A stretch of 64,000 nt of DNA from Nitrososphaerota archaeon (GTDB lineage Archaea > Thermoproteota > Nitrososphaeria > Conexivisphaerales > UBA164): the NCBI GenBank assembly GCA_009903795.1, contig WYER01000003.1, positions 8,637 to 72,636 of the forward strand, written 5' to 3'. The position numbers and the translations under genes are program-made. Positions 38,042-56,950 of this stretch are shown in pieces; within the stretch, counting starts at the first letter, position 1; each line of letters starts with the position of its first letter. Below the pieces are notes generated by a model that saw only the letters and a program-made list of their open reading frames with translations, searched no databases and had not been told where the DNA came from.

Positions 38042-38341
38042 ATGAGCATTATAGTTGAAATAGCTGTTGACCCAATAGGCACAAACTCAACTAGTGTTAG
38101 CAATTACATAATAAAGGTTGTTGAGGTGATAGAAAAAATGAATCTTAAATATCAGGTCGGCCCTATGGGAACTTCGATTGAGCTGAAAAACCTAAAGCAA
38201 GTCGGCGATTTGCTTCAAGCGATTCACGATGAGCTAAACAAACAAGGTGTAAACAGAATAGTTACCACTGTAAGGATAGATGATAGAAGGGACAAAGAAG
38301 AAACTATGGAGTATAAGCTAAGTCGAGTGTTTAAAAGGTAA
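38042..38341 (+). CDS. MTH1187/YkoF-like (DUF77, UPF0045) small protein
   Basis: The track ORF at 37952 starts inside the IS fragment. The conserved part starts at the ATG at 38042 (MSIIVEIAVDPIGT...S.YI......I......Y.VGPMGT.IE). This is the ferredoxin-like UPF0045 pattern. Confidence 0.65.
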   Translation: MSIIVEIAVDPIGTNSTSVSNYIIKVVEVIEKMNLKYQVGPMGTSIELKNLKQVGDLLQAIHDELNKQGVNRIVTTVRIDDRRDKEETMEYKLSRVFKR

Positions 38342-38690
38342 TATAACCAGTACTTCCGCAAGTATAGCATTTTAATTATAATTAACGGTGTAATTGTTTT
38401 TAAATTAATTTCATATAGCGTCGTTTTAAATCAGATTTTTGTCCCTAGCCTTATAGTGCAAACTAATGGCCTAATAGTTAGCTTATTTAGTGAGCCCAAA
38501 AGTATGCGTTCGTGCTTTGAATTTTAACCTGCCTGGGTTGTACATTATGTAATTCTTCTCAAACACAATAAAGGAACCCATTTCTTTCATTGTATATCAT
38601 AATAAGGCGCTTTCTGTTAAAAGGTAGAACCATTAAGACTTCGGAAATTATCGTCGTTCTTATCACCAATGTATTGTAACAATAAAGTGA

Positions 38691-38766
38691 TGCGGCGGGC
38701 GGGATTTGAACCCGCGATTTTCAGCGTGGCAGGCTGACGTCCTAGACCAGGCTAGACGACCGCCGC
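38691..38766 (-). tRNA. tRNA-Gly (anticodon GCC)
   Basis: The reverse complement is GCGGCGGTCGTCTAGCCTGGTCTAGGACGTCAGCCTGCCACGCTGAAAATCGCGGGTTCAAATCCCGCCCGCCGCA, a clean 76-nt cloverleaf. Confidence 0.9.
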
Positions 38767-38998
38767 TTTCTGACATCCTCTCCGTCCCAAAGGGCTATGT
38801 TACCTTAGGGCGGATCATAGGTTCGTGGTTTATCGCCTTCATCTTCATCACTTCATAGCTAGTGGGATTTACCAACCCCGCTCCGTTCGTCCAGCGATAG
38901 ACCACGGGCTGTGCCTCCAGCCACTTACCCCTATCCTCATTGGACTCAGCGATATGTAGAGCCCTCGTGGGGCGTCCCTCTACGGGACACAGTTTAAT
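38767..38998 (-). ncRNA. Unclassified GC-rich structured RNA candidate (reduced RNase P RNA is one hypothesis)
   Basis: This is about 230 nt with no ORF, and it is markedly more GC-rich than its surroundings. The ends pair (CUGUGUCCC at 38984-38992 with GGGACGGAG at 38780-38788). Internal hairpins include GUAGAG...CUCUAC and GGCUG-GAGGCA-CAGCC, and there is a GUGAUGA K-turn-like motif. A TATA box lies 26 nt upstream, and the RNA sits 13 nt upstream of tRNA-Gly on the same strand. Confidence 0.5.
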
Positions 38999-39017
38999 AC
39001 GCTTTACAATGTCTTAG

Positions 39018-39029
39018 TATTTAAATTTT
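39018..39029 (-). promoter_or_regulatory. Archaeal TATA box (AAAATTTAAATA on the minus strand) for the structured RNA / tRNA-Gly unit
   Basis: Read directly. The spacing of about 26 nt to the first paired nucleotide of the RNA fits archaeal promoter geometry. It lies only about 12 nt from the IS left end. Confidence 0.5.
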
Positions 39030-39041
39030 ACCCAGCCTCTA

Positions 39042-39800
39042 GGGGTGCCGTTAACTTAAGGCTTAAAATTTATTTTTCAGTGGGGCCCTCTTTCTAGCAA
39101 ATGATTACACAAACCAGAAAAAGGACCCAATAGCACTTATACTCTATGCCTTATATCTTTATTTCTCCAGTTTGAGCTTAAGAAGGGCTTCCCATGTACT
39201 CGAGCCAATAATCAAGAGAAGCCACGTTGCAATATGGAAATGGATTCAGAAGTATTCTTTCGTATTAGATTCCTTTGACGTTGACAAACACGATGTTAAT
39301 TCCATATTTATTGATGAAACTGAAATAAACGTTAGAACGAAGCTTGGTTATGGGTAGCGTATGAACCTCAACTCAAAGCGTTCCTATCATTCCACATAAG
39401 CTGGCACCAAACTCTTTCGATGCATACTATTTCATAAGGAAGCTTGTAAAGTATTGCAGGAAGACTATCTACACAATCGGAGCTCTTTGGTACGTTGATG
39501 CATGTAGGTGGGCAGGGGTAGACATGTTATGTATGGAGAGAGCCTGAAGAACTTCATGTAAAGGATGAATGAATACATAAAGGACAGGACAAAAGCTTTT
39601 GACGACATTTTCCCGTGCAAAAAGCCAAAATTTGAGCACGTAAAGAACTGGTTCAAAGCATTCAGATTCTTCTATGTATTCACAAACGAGAAAATTGGTT
39701 CAGCTCCACTTTCAAATGAACAGCTGTCTGAATGGATTAAGCCAATTTTGTTGATTGCAAGCATGAGGTGATCAGAATGAGCTTAAGTTAACGGCACCCC
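39042..39800 (+). mobile_element. IS element (IS6-like by transposase remnants) with 19-bp terminal inverted repeats and a disrupted transposase
   Basis: The left inverted repeat (IRL) is GGGGTGCCGTTAACTTAAG at 39042-39060. The right inverted repeat (IRR) is CTTAAGTTAACGGCACCCC at 39782-39800, its perfect complement. TCTA flanks both ends. The transposase reads across three frames with stops: ...SLSLRRASHVLEPIIKRSHVAIWKWIQKY...IFIDETEINV..., then W.AYEPQLKAFLSFHIS, then ...YIKDRTKAFDDIFPCKKPKFEHVKNWFKAF. Confidence 0.75.
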
Positions 39801-40132
39801 TCTAGAAGAGGCGAGGCTTTTGTTCGTTTTGTAAACCTAGAAGAATATTCATACACTATTAACTATAAACGCTTCTTATCCTTTTATTTTATATCAATCG
39901 GCATGCCACAATAAGTTTGAGAATCCTTTTTCGTACCTTAGCCATTTCTCTTTGTGAAACTTTTTAGGCTAGCGCATTGTAATTAAGCCTCCTTAGATGA
40001 CCATCTTGTTGCCAACGTTTTTATCCTTTCGCTCTGAGAATTTTGCGATATAGCCCACATTGGCTCTGTGCATTTTGTAAAGCTTAATGATTTAATGATT
40101 TCATGTTTAACTTAGGCAAAGGTTATGCCTTT

Positions 40133-40270
40133 TTATGAACATGTAGTGTGCCTTTTGCATTTACTGTAAAGCTGCTTTACCCTTCTGGTTGATATTCCTG
40201 CTGCGTCTGCAATTTCTCTGTTAGTAAATTTTTCTTTAGCGTTAAAGATTGAAATGATCTTTGTTAAGCA
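40133..40270 (-). pseudogene. Orphan helix-turn-helix gene fragment (45 codons, no start)
   Basis: My own translation gives CLTKIISIFNAKEKFTNREIADAAGISTRRVKQLYSKCKRHTTCS*. This is a typical HTH (REIA...GIS..TV) such as a transposase or resolvase N-terminus. It has no Met and an upstream stop. Confidence 0.3.
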
Positions 40271-40364
40271 TCACAGCATGCTTTTTTATCAAATTTATCC
40301 ATAATCTGCTTAATTTGTTTACAAACTAGATGTTTAAGAGTATGAGATAATTTCCAAATAAATT

Positions 40365-40844
40365 TTATACTATCTTTGAATCCCAGATACCTTTGTCTAC
40401 TTCCTGAATTACTTCTTTCGGGTTTTTTCCTTCAACCTTTATACCCATAGAAACGCAGGTTCCCAGAACAGTTTTTACTGCTCCCTTGAGCGTCTTCGCG
40501 CTCATGGCGTTAAACTTGGCCTTTGCGACTTTAACTACGCTCTCAAATTTTATGTCTCCTACCCACTCTGTTCCTGGTTTACTTGAACCTTTCTGGGCGT
40601 TTGCTTCTTTCAGCAACAACGCTGACGTTGGCGGCAGTTTAACGATTACATTAAAGGATTTGTCTTCACCAACCTCAACTACTACAGGCACTTTCATACC
40701 CTTGTACTCAGCCGTTAGCTCATTAATTTTCTTAACAACCATCGGGACATTAAGGCCCAAAGGACCTAGAGCTGGCCCTATAGGTGGCCCTGCGTTGGCT
40801 TCTCCACCTACAACAACAAAGTTAAAAGATTTCTTTTCTGCCAT
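40365..40844 (-). CDS. rpl11: Ribosomal protein uL11
   Basis: 159 aa with VVGGEANAGPPIGPALGPLGLNV. Confidence 0.95.
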   Translation of the reverse strand: MAEKKSFNFVVVGGEANAGPPIGPALGPLGLNVPMVVKKINELTAEYKGMKVPVVVEVGEDKSFNVIVKLPPTSALLLKEANAQKGSSKPGTEWVGDIKFESVVKVAKAKFNAMSAKTLKGAVKTVLGTCVSMGIKVEGKNPKEVIQEVDKGIWDSKIV

Positions 40845-41073: not shown

Positions 41074-41739
41074 TCATTCCAAAGCTTCCTTTTTCGCATC
41101 TTCTAGTATTTTTACGAGCATCTCCATGGTAAGCTTCTTTGTAAAAGTGTTCTGGGGTGAAGGATGATAAGAACAGATTATGGTTAATGAATCAGCTTTA
41201 ACTTTACAGCCGTGTGAAAACTTTTGAGCCTTATCTGGTTTCTTTCCGAGCAATTCAATGATTTTCAGAGTCCATATGTAAGCAAAAGATCCAAGAACTA
41301 CGATAACTCGAGGATTAATCATTTCAATCTCTCTTTTAAGAAACTTTTTGCTACATGTTTTGGCTTCATCTGATGTAGGTTTGTTGCCTGGCGGAGCGCA
41401 CTTGACGACGGCAGTTATGTATGCATGATGTACCTTAAGCCCATCATTTATATTAACAGAAAACGGCTTGTTAGAATAACCAGCCCTGTAAAGCGCTTCA
41501 AAAAGAAAATCCCCCGATTTGTCGCCAGTAAAAACTCTCCCTGTTCTGTTACCGCCATGAGCGCTTGGTGCCAATCCTATTATCATTATTTTAGAACGCG
41601 GGTTGCCGAAGCCTGGAACGGGTTTTTTCCAGTAACCGTTTAAAGCTTCTTTTATTTCAGGAACAGATTCCCTGTAATTTACAAGCCTGGGACAAGCCTT
41701 GCATGAGATAATTTCATTATATAAAATAGACTCTGACAA
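41074..41739 (-). CDS. udg: Uracil-DNA glycosylase, family 4/5 (Fe-S type)
   Basis: 221 aa with CKACPRL, GLAPSAHGGNRTGRVFTGD and SYHPSPQN motifs. Confidence 0.85.
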   Translation of the reverse strand: MSESILYNEIISCKACPRLVNYRESVPEIKEALNGYWKKPVPGFGNPRSKIMIIGLAPSAHGGNRTGRVFTGDKSGDFLFEALYRAGYSNKPFSVNINDGLKVHHAYITAVVKCAPPGNKPTSDEAKTCSKKFLKREIEMINPRVIVVLGSFAYIWTLKIIELLGKKPDKAQKFSHGCKVKADSLTIICSYHPSPQNTFTKKLTMEMLVKILEDAKKEALE

Positions 41740-41741
41740 TT

Positions 41742-42626
41742 TTAATCCAACAATCTTTCAACAACCCATGATGGTTTAAAAGGTATAAGGTCTTCATAGC
41801 TCTGCCCAGTACCAAGGTACATTATTGGTTTCTTGGTATAAAAAGCAAGGTTCAGTATAGAACCCCCTTTTACTTCAGCATCAACCTTTGTAACTATTGA
41901 GTGAGAAAACCCAGGAGTTTGAAGGAAAGCCGTTGCCTGGTTTATCATATCATATCCTGCCAGCGCATCGCCAACAAAAATGTTAAGGTCTGACTTAACG
42001 ACTTTTACCAGCTTCGATAGCTCATTCAGCAAAGACTCATTGGTCTGCATCCTTCCAGCTGTATCTATAAGAAGTACGTCATAGCCGTTTGAGATTGCAT
42101 ATTCATAAGCTTCTCTTGAGAGGGCTGCAGGGTCAACGCCGTATTTTTTCGAAAAAACTTCCACCCCTATTCTAGATCCATGTTCAGCCAGTTGTTCTAT
42201 CGCGCCTGTTCTATAAGTGTCTGCCGCAACCATCAGCGGCCTGTACTTTAACTTTTTAAGCGAATAAGCAACTTTTGCAACTGTCGTGGTCTTTCCAGTA
42301 CCGTTAATTCCAAGAAAAACCGTTATAAAAGGCTTCTTTGCAGCCTTTCTGTAGATGTCTGGCAGCGTTTCAGTATCCTGAAAAATCTGAATTATTGCCC
42401 TCGATAGAAGTTCTCTTATAGTTTCCTGTTTTGTGCCGTTGGCTTTTACGCTCTTTACTTCTTCTATAAGCTTGCTTTTAAAATAATCTATTACGTCAAT
42501 AGAAACGTCTGCTTCTATAAAATCAATCTCCCTTTCTTTAAAAAATTCTTCTATATCTCTCTCAGTTATCTTACCCGTTATGCTTGAGATAAAATCAGAA
42601 AAAACCTTTTTCAGCTTATCGAACAT
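41742..42626 (-). CDS. ftsY: Signal recognition particle receptor FtsY
   Basis: 294 aa with GINGTGKTTT, DTAGR and TKVDA GTPase motifs. Confidence 0.95.
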   Translation of the reverse strand: MFDKLKKVFSDFISSITGKITERDIEEFFKEREIDFIEADVSIDVIDYFKSKLIEEVKSVKANGTKQETIRELLSRAIIQIFQDTETLPDIYRKAAKKPFITVFLGINGTGKTTTVAKVAYSLKKLKYRPLMVAADTYRTGAIEQLAEHGSRIGVEVFSKKYGVDPAALSREAYEYAISNGYDVLLIDTAGRMQTNESLLNELSKLVKVVKSDLNIFVGDALAGYDMINQATAFLQTPGFSHSIVTKVDAEVKGGSILNLAFYTKKPIMYLGTGQSYEDLIPFKPSWVVERLLD

Positions 42627-43050
42627 TTTGAACCCTTTTTAATAGCTCACTTAACTCATACCTTGCTCCTTCAAGCTTTTCCTCCACTGCTTTTTTGTCT
42701 TGTTGAGCATTTGATAAAGCTTTTTCTAGTTCTTCTATTCTTTCTTTTAAAAAGTTCAGAGCGTAATCTTTATTCTTGACCATCAGAACCCCTCCTCCAA
42801 CCTTTAACATTATCTTGCTTGAAGAATCAACTTTCGTTTTTAACAAAACATCGCCGCCCAGAGGAACTACTATTTCTGATTCTTTGTCCTCAGGAAGTGT
42901 TTCTATTGCGAGCTGCGCTGCCTTTGTCTCTTCAATAGCCTGTCCAATCAAGTAAATTCTGGATATTATGCTTTCGTAGTAATTTTCTAAAACCTGTATC
43001 GCGTTAGCGAGCTCATTAATTCTGTTTTCAACATCAGATTGACTCTGCAA
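42616..43050 (-). CDS. pfdA: Prefoldin alpha subunit
   Basis: 144 aa arranged as coiled coil, two beta hairpins (VPLGGDVLLK, VGGGVLM), then coiled coil. It is adjacent to ftsY, as in many archaea. Confidence 0.8.
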   Translation of the reverse strand: MQSQSDVENRINELANAIQVLENYYESIISRIYLIGQAIEETKAAQLAIETLPEDKESEIVVPLGGDVLLKTKVDSSSKIMLKVGGGVLMVKNKDYALNFLKERIEELEKALSNAQQDKKAVEEKLEGARYELSELLKRVQNVR

Positions 43051-51909: not shown

Positions 51910-52389
51910 ATGTCGACGAATTATTCTAAGGTTCGTTTGAAAATTGGTGTAAACGAGATAGAAATTTATGGAGTAAAAGATGACATGGAATATTTGGGTC
52001 AGCTGGCTTTGAAAATTTATGATACTGTGTCTAAAAATACAAGTTCGCTACAAAGCAAAATTACAGTTATAGAAAAAGAGGACGAAAAAGAAAAGCAAGC
52101 TGAAAACATAATCCAGCTTCCGGACATACAACTAGATCCAAATTCATCCTTACCTGCTAACATAATCAAATTGTTCATAAGCGAATGGGGAAAAAAGCCC
52201 AGAAGGCTTTCTGAAGTAAAAGAAGTGCTCGACAGCTTTGGCCTAGTCTATCCAAAGCAGACGGTAGCAGTATCTCTTTTGAGGCTTGCAAAAGAAGGAA
52301 AGATTAGAAGGTTTAAGAACGAGAGGGGAGAATATGTATATATTTCTGTTCCTTCAAAGATAGTACAGGAACAAGGTGAGACCGCATGA
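51910..52389 (+). CDS. Hypothetical two-domain protein with a C-terminal winged helix-turn-helix
   Basis: 159 aa. The N-terminal beta-rich module is KVRLKIGVNEIEIYGVKDDMEYLGQLALKIY, followed by an acidic linker. The C-terminal wHTH is RRLSEVKEVLDSFGLVYPKQTVAVSLLRLAKEGKIRRFKNERGEYVY. Confidence 0.5.
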   Translation: MSTNYSKVRLKIGVNEIEIYGVKDDMEYLGQLALKIYDTVSKNTSSLQSKITVIEKEDEKEKQAENIIQLPDIQLDPNSSLPANIIKLFISEWGKKPRRLSEVKEVLDSFGLVYPKQTVAVSLLRLAKEGKIRRFKNERGEYVYISVPSKIVQEQGETA

Positions 52390-52889
52390 GTACTACTTCA
52401 CTAAAAGTTGACATAAGCTATGGAGAGCTTTCAGCAACATTTAGCGGCAACCCAGATGAAGTACTCGTTGCAGTGACTAGGTTTCTGGCTTCTAACGTTC
52501 CAGCCATAGATGTTGCAAAAAAGATTCTGCTAAACTACGATTTACAGGAACTTATTCAGATGTTTTCAGACTACATAAAGATCACAAACGAAGGACCTCG
52601 CGTACTCCCTAGGGAAAACCTGAGCATAAAACAAAAGATAACTCTTCAGCTGGTTGGAAACAGAATAGCTTATTTGTTAAACAAGATACAGGATGAATCT
52701 ATGACATTACAAGATCTAATAAACGTTCTTGGACTTCCGGGAAAGTCTATAAGCAGTAGGCTGAGCGAGCTCGTTAAAGCCGGTCACGTTATTAGAATTC
52801 AGGATTCAAAGACTACAAAATATCAGATATCTACTATGGGGATCAAATGGTTATCTGACACCCTTACAGGAAAAATCAAAGCAGAGTGA
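52386..52889 (+). CDS. Hypothetical two-domain protein, paralogous in architecture to the upstream gene (C-terminal wHTH)
   Basis: 167 aa with an ATGA start/stop overlap. The N-terminus is LKVDISYGELSATFSGNPDEVLVAVTRFL. The C-terminal wHTH is MTLQDLINVLGLPGKSISSRLSELVKAGHVIRIQDSKTTKYQIS. Confidence 0.5.
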   Translation: MSTTSLKVDISYGELSATFSGNPDEVLVAVTRFLASNVPAIDVAKKILLNYDLQELIQMFSDYIKITNEGPRVLPRENLSIKQKITLQLVGNRIAYLLNKIQDESMTLQDLINVLGLPGKSISSRLSELVKAGHVIRIQDSKTTKYQISTMGIKWLSDTLTGKIKAE

Positions 52890-53174: not shown

Positions 53175-54254
53175 TTAAAAAGTTTCTTTTGTACTGATAA
53201 CCTGAACTTTTCCTTCATTATATTTTTGCTTTATTATGTCTATTAGCTTTTCAAGGTTTATCCTCCTAAGGGCTGATATTTCTACATAATCCTTTATTCT
53301 GCCATCCTGGAATACAAATTCGTTTTTCTTCTGATCTATCTTGTTGAGCACAGCAACCACGTTATCTAAGTTTACTTCAAGCTCTTCAAGGACGTTCAGA
53401 CTCGTCATGTACTTTCTCCAAAAAAGCTCTTCATCCAGACTGTAATCAAGAACAAGAAGTATTAGGTCCGAATATTTTAACTCTTCAAGAGTAGACTTAA
53501 ATGACTCGATCAAATAATGTGGAAGCCTTTCTATAAATCCAACAGTATCGCTTATATAAACGTTATCCAATCCGTTTATCTTTCTTATGGTTGTGGTTAA
53601 AGTAGTGAACATTTTTCCGGTTACAGTTTTGTTCTCGTTTGTAAGAGCATTAAAAAGCGTCGTTTTACCAGCTCCAGTATAGCCTGCTAGGGCAACTATA
53701 AATTTGTCTTCTTCAAGCCTTCTCTGCCTGTGCAGGCTTCTCCTCATTCTTTCTCTTTCGAGCTTTTTTCTTAAACTGTTAATCTGCTTGTTAAGGAACC
53801 TTATGTACTTATCAACTTCGTAAGCACCGTAACCCATGGGACCAGTCTGCTCCCCCATCTTTGTTAACCTGACTATCTCCTTAATTCGTGGTATTTCATA
53901 CTGTAACTCTGCAAGCTTTACCTGAAGTTTAGCTTCAGTTGTCATTGCCCTTTTTTCAAATATGTCTAGTATCAGTCTTATCCTGTCTATGGTCTTTACG
54001 CCAAGAAGTTTGCTGAGATTATAGAGCTGAGAAGCGGACAGCTGTTCATCTATTATCACAAGATCTGGTTTCAATTTTTCTGTTAATTCCTTTAGTTCTT
54101 CTGCCTTTCCTTTGGACAGCCCGTACTTTCCTTCTTTCATGCTTTTAACTTTGAACGAAACTAATGGTCTGTACCCTGCTGAAGAAGCCAGCTCAATGGC
54201 TTCTTGCTCAGAGTAAGGTTCTCTGTAAGTTACAACTATAGATCTTTCGTTCAC
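53175..54254 (-). CDS. hflX: GTPase HflX
   Basis: 359 aa with the HflX N-terminal domain (LIIDEQLSASQLYNL, RLILDIFEKRA.T.EAKLQV.LA.L.Y) and a G domain (GYTGAGKTTLFNALT, DTVGF, NKID). Confidence 0.9.
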   Translation of the reverse strand: MNERSIVVTYREPYSEQEAIELASSAGYRPLVSFKVKSMKEGKYGLSKGKAEELKELTEKLKPDLVIIDEQLSASQLYNLSKLLGVKTIDRIRLILDIFEKRAMTTEAKLQVKLAELQYEIPRIKEIVRLTKMGEQTGPMGYGAYEVDKYIRFLNKQINSLRKKLERERMRRSLHRQRRLEEDKFIVALAGYTGAGKTTLFNALTNENKTVTGKMFTTLTTTIRKINGLDNVYISDTVGFIERLPHYLIESFKSTLEELKYSDLILLVLDYSLDEELFWRKYMTSLNVLEELEVNLDNVVAVLNKIDQKKNEFVFQDGRIKDYVEISALRRINLEKLIDIIKQKYNEGKVQVISTKETF

Positions 54255-54628
54255 TTTCTGAGCTTCACCTTTAAACTGTACTCGATCTTCCTTAAAGTTG
54301 GATAATCTGGGATTATTTTTTCCTGTTCTATCTTAGCAAGAAGGGATGGTTTTATCCCTATCTTTCTTCCGAGCTGTTCTTGGGTTAGGTTCATCTTTTC
54401 TCTTATCTCTTTAATTATCCTTCCGTAGCCATCTATAAGCTCGTATTCCTCTTCAACTTGATTTTTTGTAGGTCTGACTATACCGCTTACTTTTGCTTCA
54501 TTATTTTTGCGTTCGTTCACTATTTTTCCGTACTTTGCGCATTCTTCACATACTTTCAAATAAGCGCCATCTACCTCTATGGTTATAGGTTTACCGAATA
54601 TCGGTTTGCCACATATTTCACAATTCAT
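54251..54628 (-). CDS. mbf1: Archaeal multiprotein-bridging factor 1 (zinc ribbon + cro/C1-type HTH)
   Basis: 125 aa with CEICG...CEEC and then LTQEQLGRKIGIKPSLLAKIEQ. It overlaps the hflX start by 4 nt. Confidence 0.85.
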   Translation of the reverse strand: MNCEICGKPIFGKPITIEVDGAYLKVCEECAKYGKIVNERKNNEAKVSGIVRPTKNQVEEEYELIDGYGRIIKEIREKMNLTQEQLGRKIGIKPSLLAKIEQEKIIPDYPTLRKIEYSLKVKLRK

Positions 54629-55011: not shown

Positions 55012-55185
55012 ATGCCTACACACGGCAGTATCACAAAAGCGGGAAAGGTCAGATCACAAACGCCAAAGATTCAGGGTAGAGAAAGACATAATCCGCCTCC
55101 ACGTATATCTTTAAGAGCTAAGTATATTAAGAGAGTAGAACTAAAAAGAAATCCAGGACAAAACTGGGCATTTTTAAGAAAGTAA
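55012..55185 (+). CDS. rps30e: Ribosomal protein eS30
   Basis: The track ORF at 54895 is N-terminally over-extended. From the ATG at 55012 the sequence reads MPTHGSITKAGKVRSQTPKIQGRERHNPPPR..., with the eS30 hallmark HGSLTKAGKVRSQTPK. Confidence 0.85.
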   Translation: MPTHGSITKAGKVRSQTPKIQGRERHNPPPRISLRAKYIKRVELKRNPGQNWAFLRK

Positions 55186-55255
55186 TAATAATTTTATGGT
55201 AACACAGAATTCAGAAGTTCTTGAAGTTCTATCTCTGAAATTCCTTTAGTTAAGC

Positions 55256-56347
55256 TTACCTGTCTTTTTCAAGAACCTTTTCCAGCTTGTGAATAGCGTC
55301 CACAAGCGAATTCTTTATTCCCCATCCATCGCCTGTAACAGATGTTTTTACGTAAGGACCGTTTACCTGTATCCTTATTATAACGTGCGGTTTGCCTTTT
55401 CTCTGCCTTTGATCCCCGTTTACGTAAACTGTTAACGTTGAATTTTGCAAAATCTTTGAGTATTTCCTTGTCAAGCTTGTAATCCTTCTTCTTATCGTTT
55501 CAGGGTCGTATTCGAGTTCTTCTATTACTCCTTTCTTTGAAAGCTGAAGGAATATTGCGGGTTCTGTAACTTTTATTGAAGCTATATGTTTGAGAAGATC
55601 TTCTTTGGTCAAGATGCCGCTTAGATGCCGGTTTCTCGTAACAACTACTGATGAAAACCTGAACTTTTTCATCAGTTCAAAAGCTTCAAAAGCGTTGGCG
55701 TTTTCATCTATTGACTTTACGTCCTCTGTCATGATTGATTTTACCGAACCCTCGGCTATGTCCTTCATCTCTCCAATAGGGCTATCCCTTTTCTGCCTAA
55801 ATTTTGGCTTGATAACCTTCTGTATTATGTCATGAAGGGTTACAATTCCAACTACCTGTTCATCTTTCATAATTATAACTCGTGAAACGCCCGAGTTTCT
55901 CATGGTAGAAAGTAATTGTCCTATTGTTGAATCTACGTCAAGAGTAACTGGATCGGGTGTCATTATGTCCTTTGCAGTGACGTTTCTGAAGACGCTGCGA
56001 CTTTGAGATATTACGTCATCAGCAAAGACTCCGCCGCCAACGCTACCATCTTGCAAAACATACGGCAGAGTTTTAAAACCGCTTTCTACCATCAGCCTGC
56101 TTACGTCATCTAAGTTTTCGTTACCAGATAACTTCGGCGCCACTTTCATAAGAGTTTTTACTTTGGTCGTAGTGGGATCATAATTAAGCTTGTAAGCAAG
56201 GCTTTCGTTTATTATTCCCTCATAGAAAAAACCGTTGGAAACAACAATAAGATCCCTCTGTTTTTCAAATAGATCCTGTATTTCTGAAATTGTTTTGCTT
56301 TTATCAACAGTTATTATATCTTTTTTTATAATGCTTTCTAAGCTCAT
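55256..56347 (-). CDS. Four-CBS-domain protein with a C-terminal HPF/RaiA (S30AE)-like domain
   Basis: 363 aa with four CBS repeats, for example DIMTPDPVTL...GVSRVIIM.DEQVVGIVTLHDII. The last ~100 aa (IFLQLSKKG...ETIRRRITSLTRKYSKILQNSTLTVYVNGDQRQRKGKPHVIIRIQVNGPYVKTSVTGDGWGIKNSLVDAIHKLEKVLEKDR) align by eye end-to-end with E. coli HPF/YfiA. Confidence 0.65.
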   Translation of the reverse strand: MSLESIIKKDIITVDKSKTISEIQDLFEKQRDLIVVSNGFFYEGIINESLAYKLNYDPTTTKVKTLMKVAPKLSGNENLDDVSRLMVESGFKTLPYVLQDGSVGGGVFADDVISQSRSVFRNVTAKDIMTPDPVTLDVDSTIGQLLSTMRNSGVSRVIIMKDEQVVGIVTLHDIIQKVIKPKFRQKRDSPIGEMKDIAEGSVKSIMTEDVKSIDENANAFEAFELMKKFRFSSVVVTRNRHLSGILTKEDLLKHIASIKVTEPAIFLQLSKKGVIEELEYDPETIRRRITSLTRKYSKILQNSTLTVYVNGDQRQRKGKPHVIIRIQVNGPYVKTSVTGDGWGIKNSLVDAIHKLEKVLEKDR

Positions 56348-56380
56348 GTATAAATCATAAACTTCTTAAAATAAAAACGT

Positions 56381-56950
56381 TTACAGATGTTCAAAATCGT
56401 TTAAAATCCTTTCCTGAAGCGCATCAAACTGTTTATACAACTCTTCAACTGTTATGTATTCGTTTACGATCATATAATCTGCAACAGCTATAACAGAACC
56501 GATGCCAAGTTCTAGCTCAATCTTATCCCTTTCTTTAAATTCATTAAAGTCCTTTGGATCATCTTCTCTTCCTCTTCTCTTAAGGAGATAAAACCTTCTC
56601 TTTGGGCTTGCGTGAAGCGCCAAAATTAATATGCGCGCGTGCTTACTAAAGAATTCAACTTCACTAGGAGACCTTATACCATCTATTATAACGAGCTTCG
56701 AGTTGCTTTTTTCTATTTTCTCTAGCGTAAGCTTTGCTACTATGTCTTTTCCACCCTGTTCTCTTAGTATCTTTACAACTTTTCTCTGGCCTTCTTTGCT
56801 CAGCCCATAACCAAGCTCTATGCTCTTTTCCCTTATTATGTTGCCCATAGAAAAAGTTGGTATCCCGAGCTTGCTGGAGACGTAAGAAGCTATAGTGGTC
56901 TTACCTGCGCCCGGCATGCCGGTTATACCTATAATTCTGACATGCTCCAA
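56381..56950 (-). CDS. P-loop nucleotide kinase-like protein (UPF0200 / dephospho-CoA-kinase-like fold)
   Basis: 189 aa with IIGITGMPGAGKTT. The overall size and pattern are those of small archaeal NMP-kinase-like proteins. Substrate unknown. Confidence 0.55.
   Translation of the reverse strand: MEHVRIIGITGMPGAGKTTIASYVSSKLGIPTFSMGNIIREKSIELGYGLSKEGQRKVVKILREQGGKDIVAKLTLEKIEKSNSKLVIIDGIRSPSEVEFFSKHARILILALHASPKRRFYLLKRRGREDDPKDFNEFKERDKIELELGIGSVIAVADYMIVNEYITVEELYKQFDALQERILNDFEHL

Follow-up and report, generated by a model that had tools for sequence, protein, structure and literature searches.

The open reading frame (ORF) at 55256..56347 on the minus strand of a 64,000-nucleotide stretch of contig WYER01000003.1 (the window) encodes a protein of 363 residues, which we regard with high confidence as the ortholog of the ribosome hibernation factor HibA, also described as AHA, in a Conexivisphaerales-like archaeon of the phylum Nitrososphaerota. 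The protein consists of four CBS repeats followed by a C-terminal part of ~100 residues (IFLQL...EKDR in the translation of 55256..56347), which is predicted to fold as an HPF/RaiA-type domain. An initial annotation, made from the DNA letters alone, had described this ORF, its four repeats and the sequence of its C-terminal part, and all of these were recovered unchanged; the ORF does exist at these coordinates, but the ancestral gene ends at 55194, and the frameshift that separates the two ends had been missed. What is new at this locus is this frameshift, a 1-nt deletion that leaves a run of five A and cuts off a conserved tail of 21 residues. The window gene, which we call hibA, is otherwise an ordinary ortholog of a known family, and its deletion is either strain-specific or artefactual. 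The gene and its parts are the following.

55256..56347, minus strand: hibA ORF as present in the window, 363 residues, stop after ...LEKDR
55194..56347, minus strand: ancestral hibA gene, 384 residues if the A-run had six A, broken by the 1-nt deletion
55562..56347, minus strand: N-terminal CBS tetrad, residues 1-262 (Pfam, AlphaFold2 and Foldseek)
55829..55849, minus strand: CBS3 motif G167-I-V-T-L-H-D173, a canonical G-h-h-T-x-x-D strand
55748..55810, minus strand: extended basic loop after CBS3, residues 180-200, KPKFRQKRDSPIGEMKDIAEG, counterpart of the HibA 'PTC loop' (PTC, peptidyl-transferase centre) and the AHA 'loop 3'
55598..55618, minus strand: CBS4 motif G244-I-L-T-K-E-D250, a canonical G-h-h-T-x-x-D strand
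55259..55558, minus strand: C-terminal HPF/RaiA-type domain (family profile, Pfam on relatives, domain model and Foldseek)
55505..55540, minus strand: archaeal-specific insertion 1, residues 270-281, in the β1-α1 loop
55382..55408, minus strand: archaeal-specific insertion 2, residues 314-322, RQRKGKPHV, at the tip of the β2-β3 hairpin
55265..55269, minus strand: A5 homopolymer, site of the 1-nt deletion
55194..55264, minus strand: out-of-frame remnant of the tail, (R)QVSLTKGISEIELQELLNSVLP, with the ancestral stop at 55194-55196 (homolog and DNA alignments)

A TATA-like element, TTTTTATTTTAA, can be read at 56366..56377 (minus strand), centred ~25 nt 5' of the hibA ATG. Judged by the promoter geometry of archaea, this suggests a putative promoter of its own and a leaderless mRNA for hibA. 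When the family hidden Markov model (HMM) was searched against the 351 ORFs of the window, only 55256..56347 matched, so that the window holds no paralog.

Homology to archaeal ribosome hibernation factors

In a phmmer search against the chains of the Protein Data Bank (PDB), the window protein matched chain H of entry 9sr9, together with seven sister entries, at E 3.6e-33, residues 12-359 of the query aligning with residues 15-368 of the chain. This chain is HibA of Pyrococcus abyssi, PAB0961 (Madru et al., Nat Commun 2026, PMC13324472), to which BLASTP aligned the window protein with 30% identity over 358 residues (E 1e-36). The full-length homology argues for a probable archaeal ribosome hibernation factor, as the initial annotation had proposed. 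A second solved homolog, chain a of 9l96, was matched by phmmer at E 4.8e-21, with the C-terminal domain included. This chain, present also in 9l98, 9l9c and 9l9v, is a 406-residue 'CBS domain-containing protein' with an HPF-like C-terminus, and its lower-case chain identifier suggests membership in a ribosome complex; no paper on these entries turned up in the literature search, and they are not among the ARC depositions.

HibA, named Hib in the preprint of October 2025 (10.1101/2025.10.11.676729), with F0LKU5 as its counterpart in Thermococcus barophilus, is a fusion between a module of four CBS repeats and an HPF/RaiA-like domain (PMC13324472). Cryo-electron microscopy of stressed P. abyssi cells found its C-terminal domain fixed in the mRNA/tRNA channel of the 30S subunit and its CBS module in three positions on the 50S subunit (PTC, uL5 and L1 stalk), A, P and E sites being jointly occluded, and a loop of CBS3, residues 190-207, wraps a PTC adenine that is universally conserved (PMC13324472). 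HibA inhibits translation in extracts, for which the C-terminal domain is required, and a knockout in T. barophilus has its stationary-phase 70S ribosomes reduced by ~60% and its lag doubled (PMC13324472). The protein binds AMP, ADP and ATP with dissociation constants of 12 uM, 65 uM and 113 uM, respectively, and neither AMP nor ATP clearly altered its occupancy or its conformations on the ribosome (PMC13324472). The study furthermore mentions pull-downs in Thermococcales that link it to replication and recombination proteins (PMC13324472). AHA of Haloferax volcanii, reported in an independent preprint, belongs to the same family (PMC12934967): two AMP molecules are bound at its CBS3/CBS4 junction, CBS3 extends its loop 3 into the PTC, and knockout cells in stationary phase suffer losses of ribosomal proteins and of viability (PMC12934967).

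The description of the family dates from 2025-2026 and includes structures and knockouts as well as phylogenomic surveys that covered 4,026 and 6,968 archaeal genomes. HibA is present in ~47% of the 4,026 genomes (PMC13324472), and 3,160 homologs of AHA were counted in 2,723 archaeal species (PMC12934967). When we searched 1.84 billion representative proteins with a profile, 527 clusters (50% identity) were returned at E <= 1e-3, most of them with 360-405 residues and the domain at the C-terminus, along with stand-alone forms of ~100-140 residues. Two suppositions of the initial annotation have to be given up in view of the published work, namely that HPF-type factors lie outside the archaeal repertoire, to which they belong given the reported ~47%, and that the fusion marks an undescribed archaeal module. 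The CBS-HPF hibernation module is already in the literature, and the locus holds no new kind of system.

The C-terminal domain

The likeness of the C-terminal domain to HPF/YfiA had been called by eye. Searched as a single sequence, the last 99 residues matched PF02482 (Ribosomal_S30AE) at 13.9 bits (E 0.096) over profile positions 13-82 of 88, to be compared with a gathering score of 23.7; the Pfam scan of the full-length protein reported no match to PF02482, and an NCBIfam scan of the 99 residues gave nothing useful. By the model's own threshold the window protein is outside PF02482, and since the single-sequence match is not significant, the by-eye call needed independent support.

This support came from the family. 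We collected 45 homologs at E <= 1e-5, aligned 29 of them over their full length and cut the C-terminal domain from 16 diverse members. Scanned singly, 12 of these 16 domains matched PF02482, from sub-threshold to weakly (best E 2.8e-5). A profile built from all 16 and searched against all PDB chain sequences matched the P. abyssi 'Dehydrogenase' 9sr9_H at E 4.2e-21 and the CBS protein 9l96_a at E 1.8e-12. The same profile also aligned nearly over full length with E. coli RaiA/YfiA (E 6e-4) and with HPF chains (E 1e-3 to 5e-3; profile positions 4-106 against HPF 3-96).

The structural models point in the same direction. With the full-length AlphaFold2 (AF2) model, Foldseek gave no HPF match in its top 50, in which the CBS tetrad dominated; the domain was hence modelled alone. 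This domain model, with a predicted local distance difference test (pLDDT) score of 89.7, contains strand 3-10, helix 19-37, strands 41-53, 56-66 and 71-79, and helix 81-99, i.e. the β-α-β-β-β-α order that the initial annotation had read from the sequence. All of the 24 best Foldseek matches in the PDB were HPF, RaiA or plastid pY (E 9e-5 to 3e-3, probability 1.00, TM 0.53-0.76), in line with the structural comparison that had been suggested as a check. The by-eye call hence failed at the level of the single sequence and held up with the family profile, the relatives and the fold. With significant matches to both profiles and structures, the assignment stands, and the C-terminal domain is predicted to have the HPF/RaiA fold. 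By homology, it would plug the mRNA/tRNA channel of the 30S subunit.

Furthermore, both archaeal-specific insertions are present. Insertion 1 aligns with GGDASALSEFT of the P. abyssi protein, which includes 283SAL285, and insertion 2, whose G318 is nearly invariant in the 29 aligned homologs, aligns with 324KFRGVHL330. 283SAL285 and 324KFRGVHL330 are segments that were deleted by the authors of the P. abyssi study (PMC13324472).

The CBS tetrad

Pfam PF00571 matched four stretches of the window protein (E 8.6e-36, 122.5 bits), which correspond to CBS1 (~3-52), CBS2 (~61-120), CBS3 (~124-180) and CBS4 (~201-257) and make up two Bateman modules. In the AF2 model this region forms four β-α-β-β-α units with pLDDT mostly 88-95, and the best Foldseek matches are the tetrads of SriA, Dri, MJ1225 and AMPK gamma (E 1e-18 to 1e-11), the CBS-tetrad matches having TMt values of 0.7-0.8. 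Homology suggests that the tetrad is a module for binding the large subunit and adenine nucleotides.

The G-h-h-T-x-x-D strand is the canonical nucleotide-binding strand of CBS domains. Among the 29 aligned homologs G167 and D173 of CBS3 are invariant, as are G244 and D250 of CBS4, with T247 nearly so; the motifs of CBS1 and CBS2 are degenerate. As the canonical motifs for adenine nucleotides are retained in CBS3 and CBS4, the window protein may be expected to bind AMP. In HibA (PMC13324472) and AHA (PMC12934967) the adenine nucleotide indeed sits at the CBS3/CBS4 interface.

The loop after CBS3 (residues 180-200) aligns without deletion to IKPRFKAQYGELAGEKIPPF of P. abyssi HibA, and the family consensus in the 29-sequence alignment reads KPxxRQxRGxxxGEK. 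With pLDDT of 56-58, it is a flexible segment of low confidence in the AF2 model. By analogy with its homologs, the loop would insert into the PTC.

Comparison with related systems

The window protein resembles HibA over its whole length, with a CBS tetrad and a C-terminal HPF/RaiA-like domain in colinear arrangement, a counterpart of the PTC loop, both archaeal HPF insertions and the CBS3/CBS4 nucleotide motifs; its relatives moreover bear a C-terminal tail of similar length. It differs in that it comes from a Conexivisphaerales-like member of the Nitrososphaerota and not from Thermococcales, shares only ~30% identity, and is frameshifted in the window, where the last 21 residues are missing. 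By its published description AHA, with four CBS domains plus HPF, is the same family under another name, though from a haloarchaeon (HVO_2384).

To bacterial HPF/RaiA (YfiA, pY; PF02482) the domain is related by detectable profile homology (E 6e-4 to 5e-3), and the characterised archaeal homologs share the decoding-channel site on the 30S subunit. In contrast to the bacterial factors, however, the window sequence is under the Pfam gathering threshold, has two archaeal insertions and follows a CBS tetrad of 262 residues, which makes it neither a stand-alone short form nor a long form. The tetrad of the archaeal fusion contacts the 50S subunit, there is no dimerisation domain of the long-HPF kind, and the archaeal factor acts on 70S monomers, not 100S dimers.

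Dri of Pyrobaculum calidifontis (9e6q, 9e7f) and SriA-D, or ARC-P and ARC-A, of Methanosarcina and Methanolobus (9znf, 9zng, 9zni) are likewise ribosome-bound archaeal hibernation factors built from CBS tetrads, and Foldseek ranks them first among the structures similar to the N-terminal module (E 1e-18 to 4e-14). Yet, Dri is built from two tetrads and each Sri protein is a tetrad on its own, and they block the ribosome via their CBS modules. Because none of them has an HPF/RaiA domain, the window protein, with one tetrad and an HPF-like domain, is not a Dri or Sri. In the published surveys, Dri and Sri largely exclude HibA phyletically. AMPK gamma is structurally similar (TM 0.49-0.57), being a CBS tetrad whose CBS3/CBS4 part has sites for adenine nucleotides, but it is a kinase regulatory subunit with no ribosome-binding domain and with 11-15% identity to the window protein.

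The A-run and the C-terminal tail

The stop codon at 55256-55258 arises from the 1-nt deletion in the A-run, by which the product loses its last 21 residues. The full-length close homologs (P0001-P0007) all have 384 residues and end in ...EKRQVSLTKGISEIELQELLNSVLP (...LEKVLEKRQVSLTKGISEIELQELLNSVLP). The window reads GAAAAAGACAGGTAA, and with one extra A the frame runs to the TAA at 55194-55196 and encodes the conserved tail exactly. In the DNA alignment, four independent metagenome contigs (L001, L002, L004 and L006), 98.7% identical to the window over ~12 kb, have six A where the window alone has five, and A6 is also found in two further contigs (L007 and L012). Eight related contigs, the most distant of them with 42% protein identity, all keep the tail in frame, with changes that are mostly synonymous or conservative, which argues that it is under selection.

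P. abyssi HibA has a C-terminal extension past its last helix, toward the mRNA exit channel; in the reading frame of the window such an extension is absent, the stop following residue 363. This does not speak against membership in the HibA family, since natural tail-less members exist: P0031 and P0032 stop where the window product stops, and the end of many representatives with 366-374 residues lies near profile position 100. The truncated product retains the whole HPF core and, as its end matches that of these natural members, it may still work.

Gene neighbourhood

The genes next to hibA are the following.

56381..56950, minus strand: P-loop nucleotide-kinase-like protein, 189 residues, 33 nt upstream of hibA (Pfam AAA_17, AAA_18 and weak ADK)
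55012..55185, plus strand: ribosomal protein eS30, convergent to hibA (PF04758, E 1e-10), likely a 57-residue form starting at MPTHGS
54251..54628, minus strand: aMBF1 (TIGR00270, 119.6 bits, cut-off 110)
53175..54254, minus strand: GTPase HflX (TIGR03156, 287 bits, cut-off 217), overlapping aMBF1 by 4 nt

The stops of eS30 and of the ancestral hibA are 8 nt apart, and a 57-residue eS30 gene is called in a related contig (L014). The NCBIfam adenylate-kinase matches of the kinase-like protein are weak, none of them at the cut-off. Within the clade, the order PEP carboxylase, Trm14, P-loop kinase-like protein, hibA, eS30 (convergent), aMBF1 and HflX is kept, and its kinase-hibA-eS30 core is retained in the relative at 42% identity. 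Because HibA genes of more distant relatives lack this core around them, we treat the neighbourhood as lineage synteny and not as evidence of a functional module, and the kinase-hibA-eS30 arrangement may reflect shared ancestry only. HflX splits hibernating ribosomes in some bacteria. One could picture a hibernation and wake-up module in which HflX frees HibA-bound 70S ribosomes and the kinase-like protein shapes the AMP/ADP/ATP signal for the CBS tetrad; we consider such a module improbable, and any link of the kinase-like protein to the CBS tetrad and its AMP is purely speculative. A smaller variant of this idea is that a real frameshift yields a natural tail-less isoform.

The nearest genomic relatives are metagenome-assembled genomes (MAGs) with the labels Nitrososphaeria, 'Nitrososphaerales', Thaumarchaeota UBA160 and Conexivisphaerales; the G+C content of the window is ~38%. 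In a more distant relative, an Aigarchaeota-labelled MAG (JAVQTN010000003.1, L016:5001-9658), the hibA homolog P0030 overlaps the start of the gene for the large subunit of DNA polymerase D (DP2) by 4 nt. Adjoining HflX throughout the clade (75-92% identity) are two overlapping genes, at 51910-52889 on the plus strand of the window, which encode proteins of 159 and 167 residues with no Pfam family, the second with a weak match to an ArsR-like helix-turn-helix domain.

Elsewhere in the window, a 2-kb stretch at 38341-40365 is devoid of ORFs of at least 70 residues. It harbours a tRNA-Gly(GCC) at 38691-38766, Rfam giving nothing else there, and ORF fragments at 39172-39357 and 39565-39771 that look transposase-like by eye and have no Pfam match. 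At 508-650 of the minus strand, an Rfam tRNA match over 143 nt (49 bits), which was not called by ARAGORN, is probably an intron-containing archaeal tRNA. The genes at 41074-43050 were considered as uL1, uL10 and P1 and rejected, as Pfam gives UDG, an SRP54-type GTPase and prefoldin instead.

Discussion

With these data in mind, a mode of action can be proposed for the window protein by analogy with the characterised members of its family. The C-terminal HPF/RaiA-type domain would occupy the mRNA/tRNA channel of the small subunit at the A and P sites, and the N-terminal CBS tetrad would dock on the large subunit, from where the basic loop after CBS3 could reach into the PTC. Because one polypeptide would hold both subunits, empty 70S ribosomes would be clamped in an inactive form and shielded from degradation under starvation or stress. 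AMP would bind to the CBS3/CBS4 pair, as its motifs predict. Gating of ribosome binding or release by the AMP/ATP ratio, in the sense of the energy-charge control that the initial annotation had proposed, is hypothetical even for the characterised members.

Three points weigh against seeing a working HibA ortholog in this gene: identity to the characterised HibA/AHA members is only ~30%, the window sequence by itself falls below the Pfam threshold for PF02482, and the product as encoded has no conserved tail, so that the protein may work poorly or the gene may be in decay. One may also ask whether the protein acts on the ribosome at all, or whether it is a generic CBS regulator, similar to the transcription factor HhpR or to a metabolic, IMPDH-related 'dehydrogenase', a frequent annotation of such genes, which carries an unrelated C-terminal α/β domain. 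Public annotations indeed go no further than 'CBS domain-containing protein' or 'predicted transcriptional regulator', there are weak NCBIfam matches to PrdR, HhpR, IMPDH and others, and CBS tetrads serve many functions. However, these matches cover the CBS part only and are all far under their cut-offs (24.5 bits against 520 for HhpR, NF053603, which we rejected as an assignment), both profile and fold mark the C-terminal domain as specifically HPF-like, and the whole protein is colinear with ribosome-bound HibA. A role apart from the ribosome thus appears very unlikely, and we hold to the assignment as a HibA/AHA ortholog.

As to the frameshift, a real mutation and a sequence error are about equally likely. 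A base-calling or assembly error, by which an A was lost from the homopolymer of an organism that encodes a normal HibA of 384 residues, has an even chance in our view: base-calling indels arise most often in A-runs such as this one, the frame beyond the deletion is fully intact, A6 occurs in six related contigs, and the exact 363-residue product is not on record in the public assemblies searched. Yet, a run of five or six bases is short for miscalling on most platforms, and the deletion is the only coding indel in the comparable 12 kb. A genuine deletion in this strain, which would make the cell produce a tail-less HibA, either functional or a first step to a pseudogene, comes close to an even chance as well. 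Comparison with the closest contigs over these 12 kb gives 1.3% of substitutions to four indels, the other three of them intergenic, a ratio expected for natural divergence, and the tail-less family members that end at the same place provide a natural precedent. Since the other genes of the window look intact, with normal operon overlaps and a coding density of 87%, and since the remaining three indels are intergenic, we rejected a generally error-prone assembly; homopolymer errors are not widespread in it. What speaks against a genuine mutation is the purifying selection that keeps the tail in frame in all eight related contigs, the 70 nt past the deletion, which are identical to the intact relatives and therefore give no sign of decay, and again the lack of the truncated product in public assemblies. 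Programmed frameshifting, by a -1 slip of tRNA-Lys on GAA-AAA-G or by transcriptional slippage, would give rise to a short and a long isoform, and after a -1 slip the AAA codon would be perfectly paired again and exactly the ancestral ...EKRQVS... sequence would follow. However, five A are short for efficient slippage, no stimulatory RNA structure is found downstream (minimum free energy -10.6 kcal/mol, z = -0.02 against shuffles), and the arrangement occurs in no relative, all of which encode the tail in frame, several without any A-run. We consider such recoding highly improbable.

In summary, a fusion that was discovered by cryo-electron microscopy was recognised correctly from raw sequence alone, and the locus adds one more example of HibA, from a poorly studied, uncultivated lineage of Nitrososphaerota, in which the diagnostic features of the family are kept at ~30% identity. 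The C-terminal tail may be naturally truncated at this locus and, if real, the truncation would offer a ready-made test of what the tail contributes.

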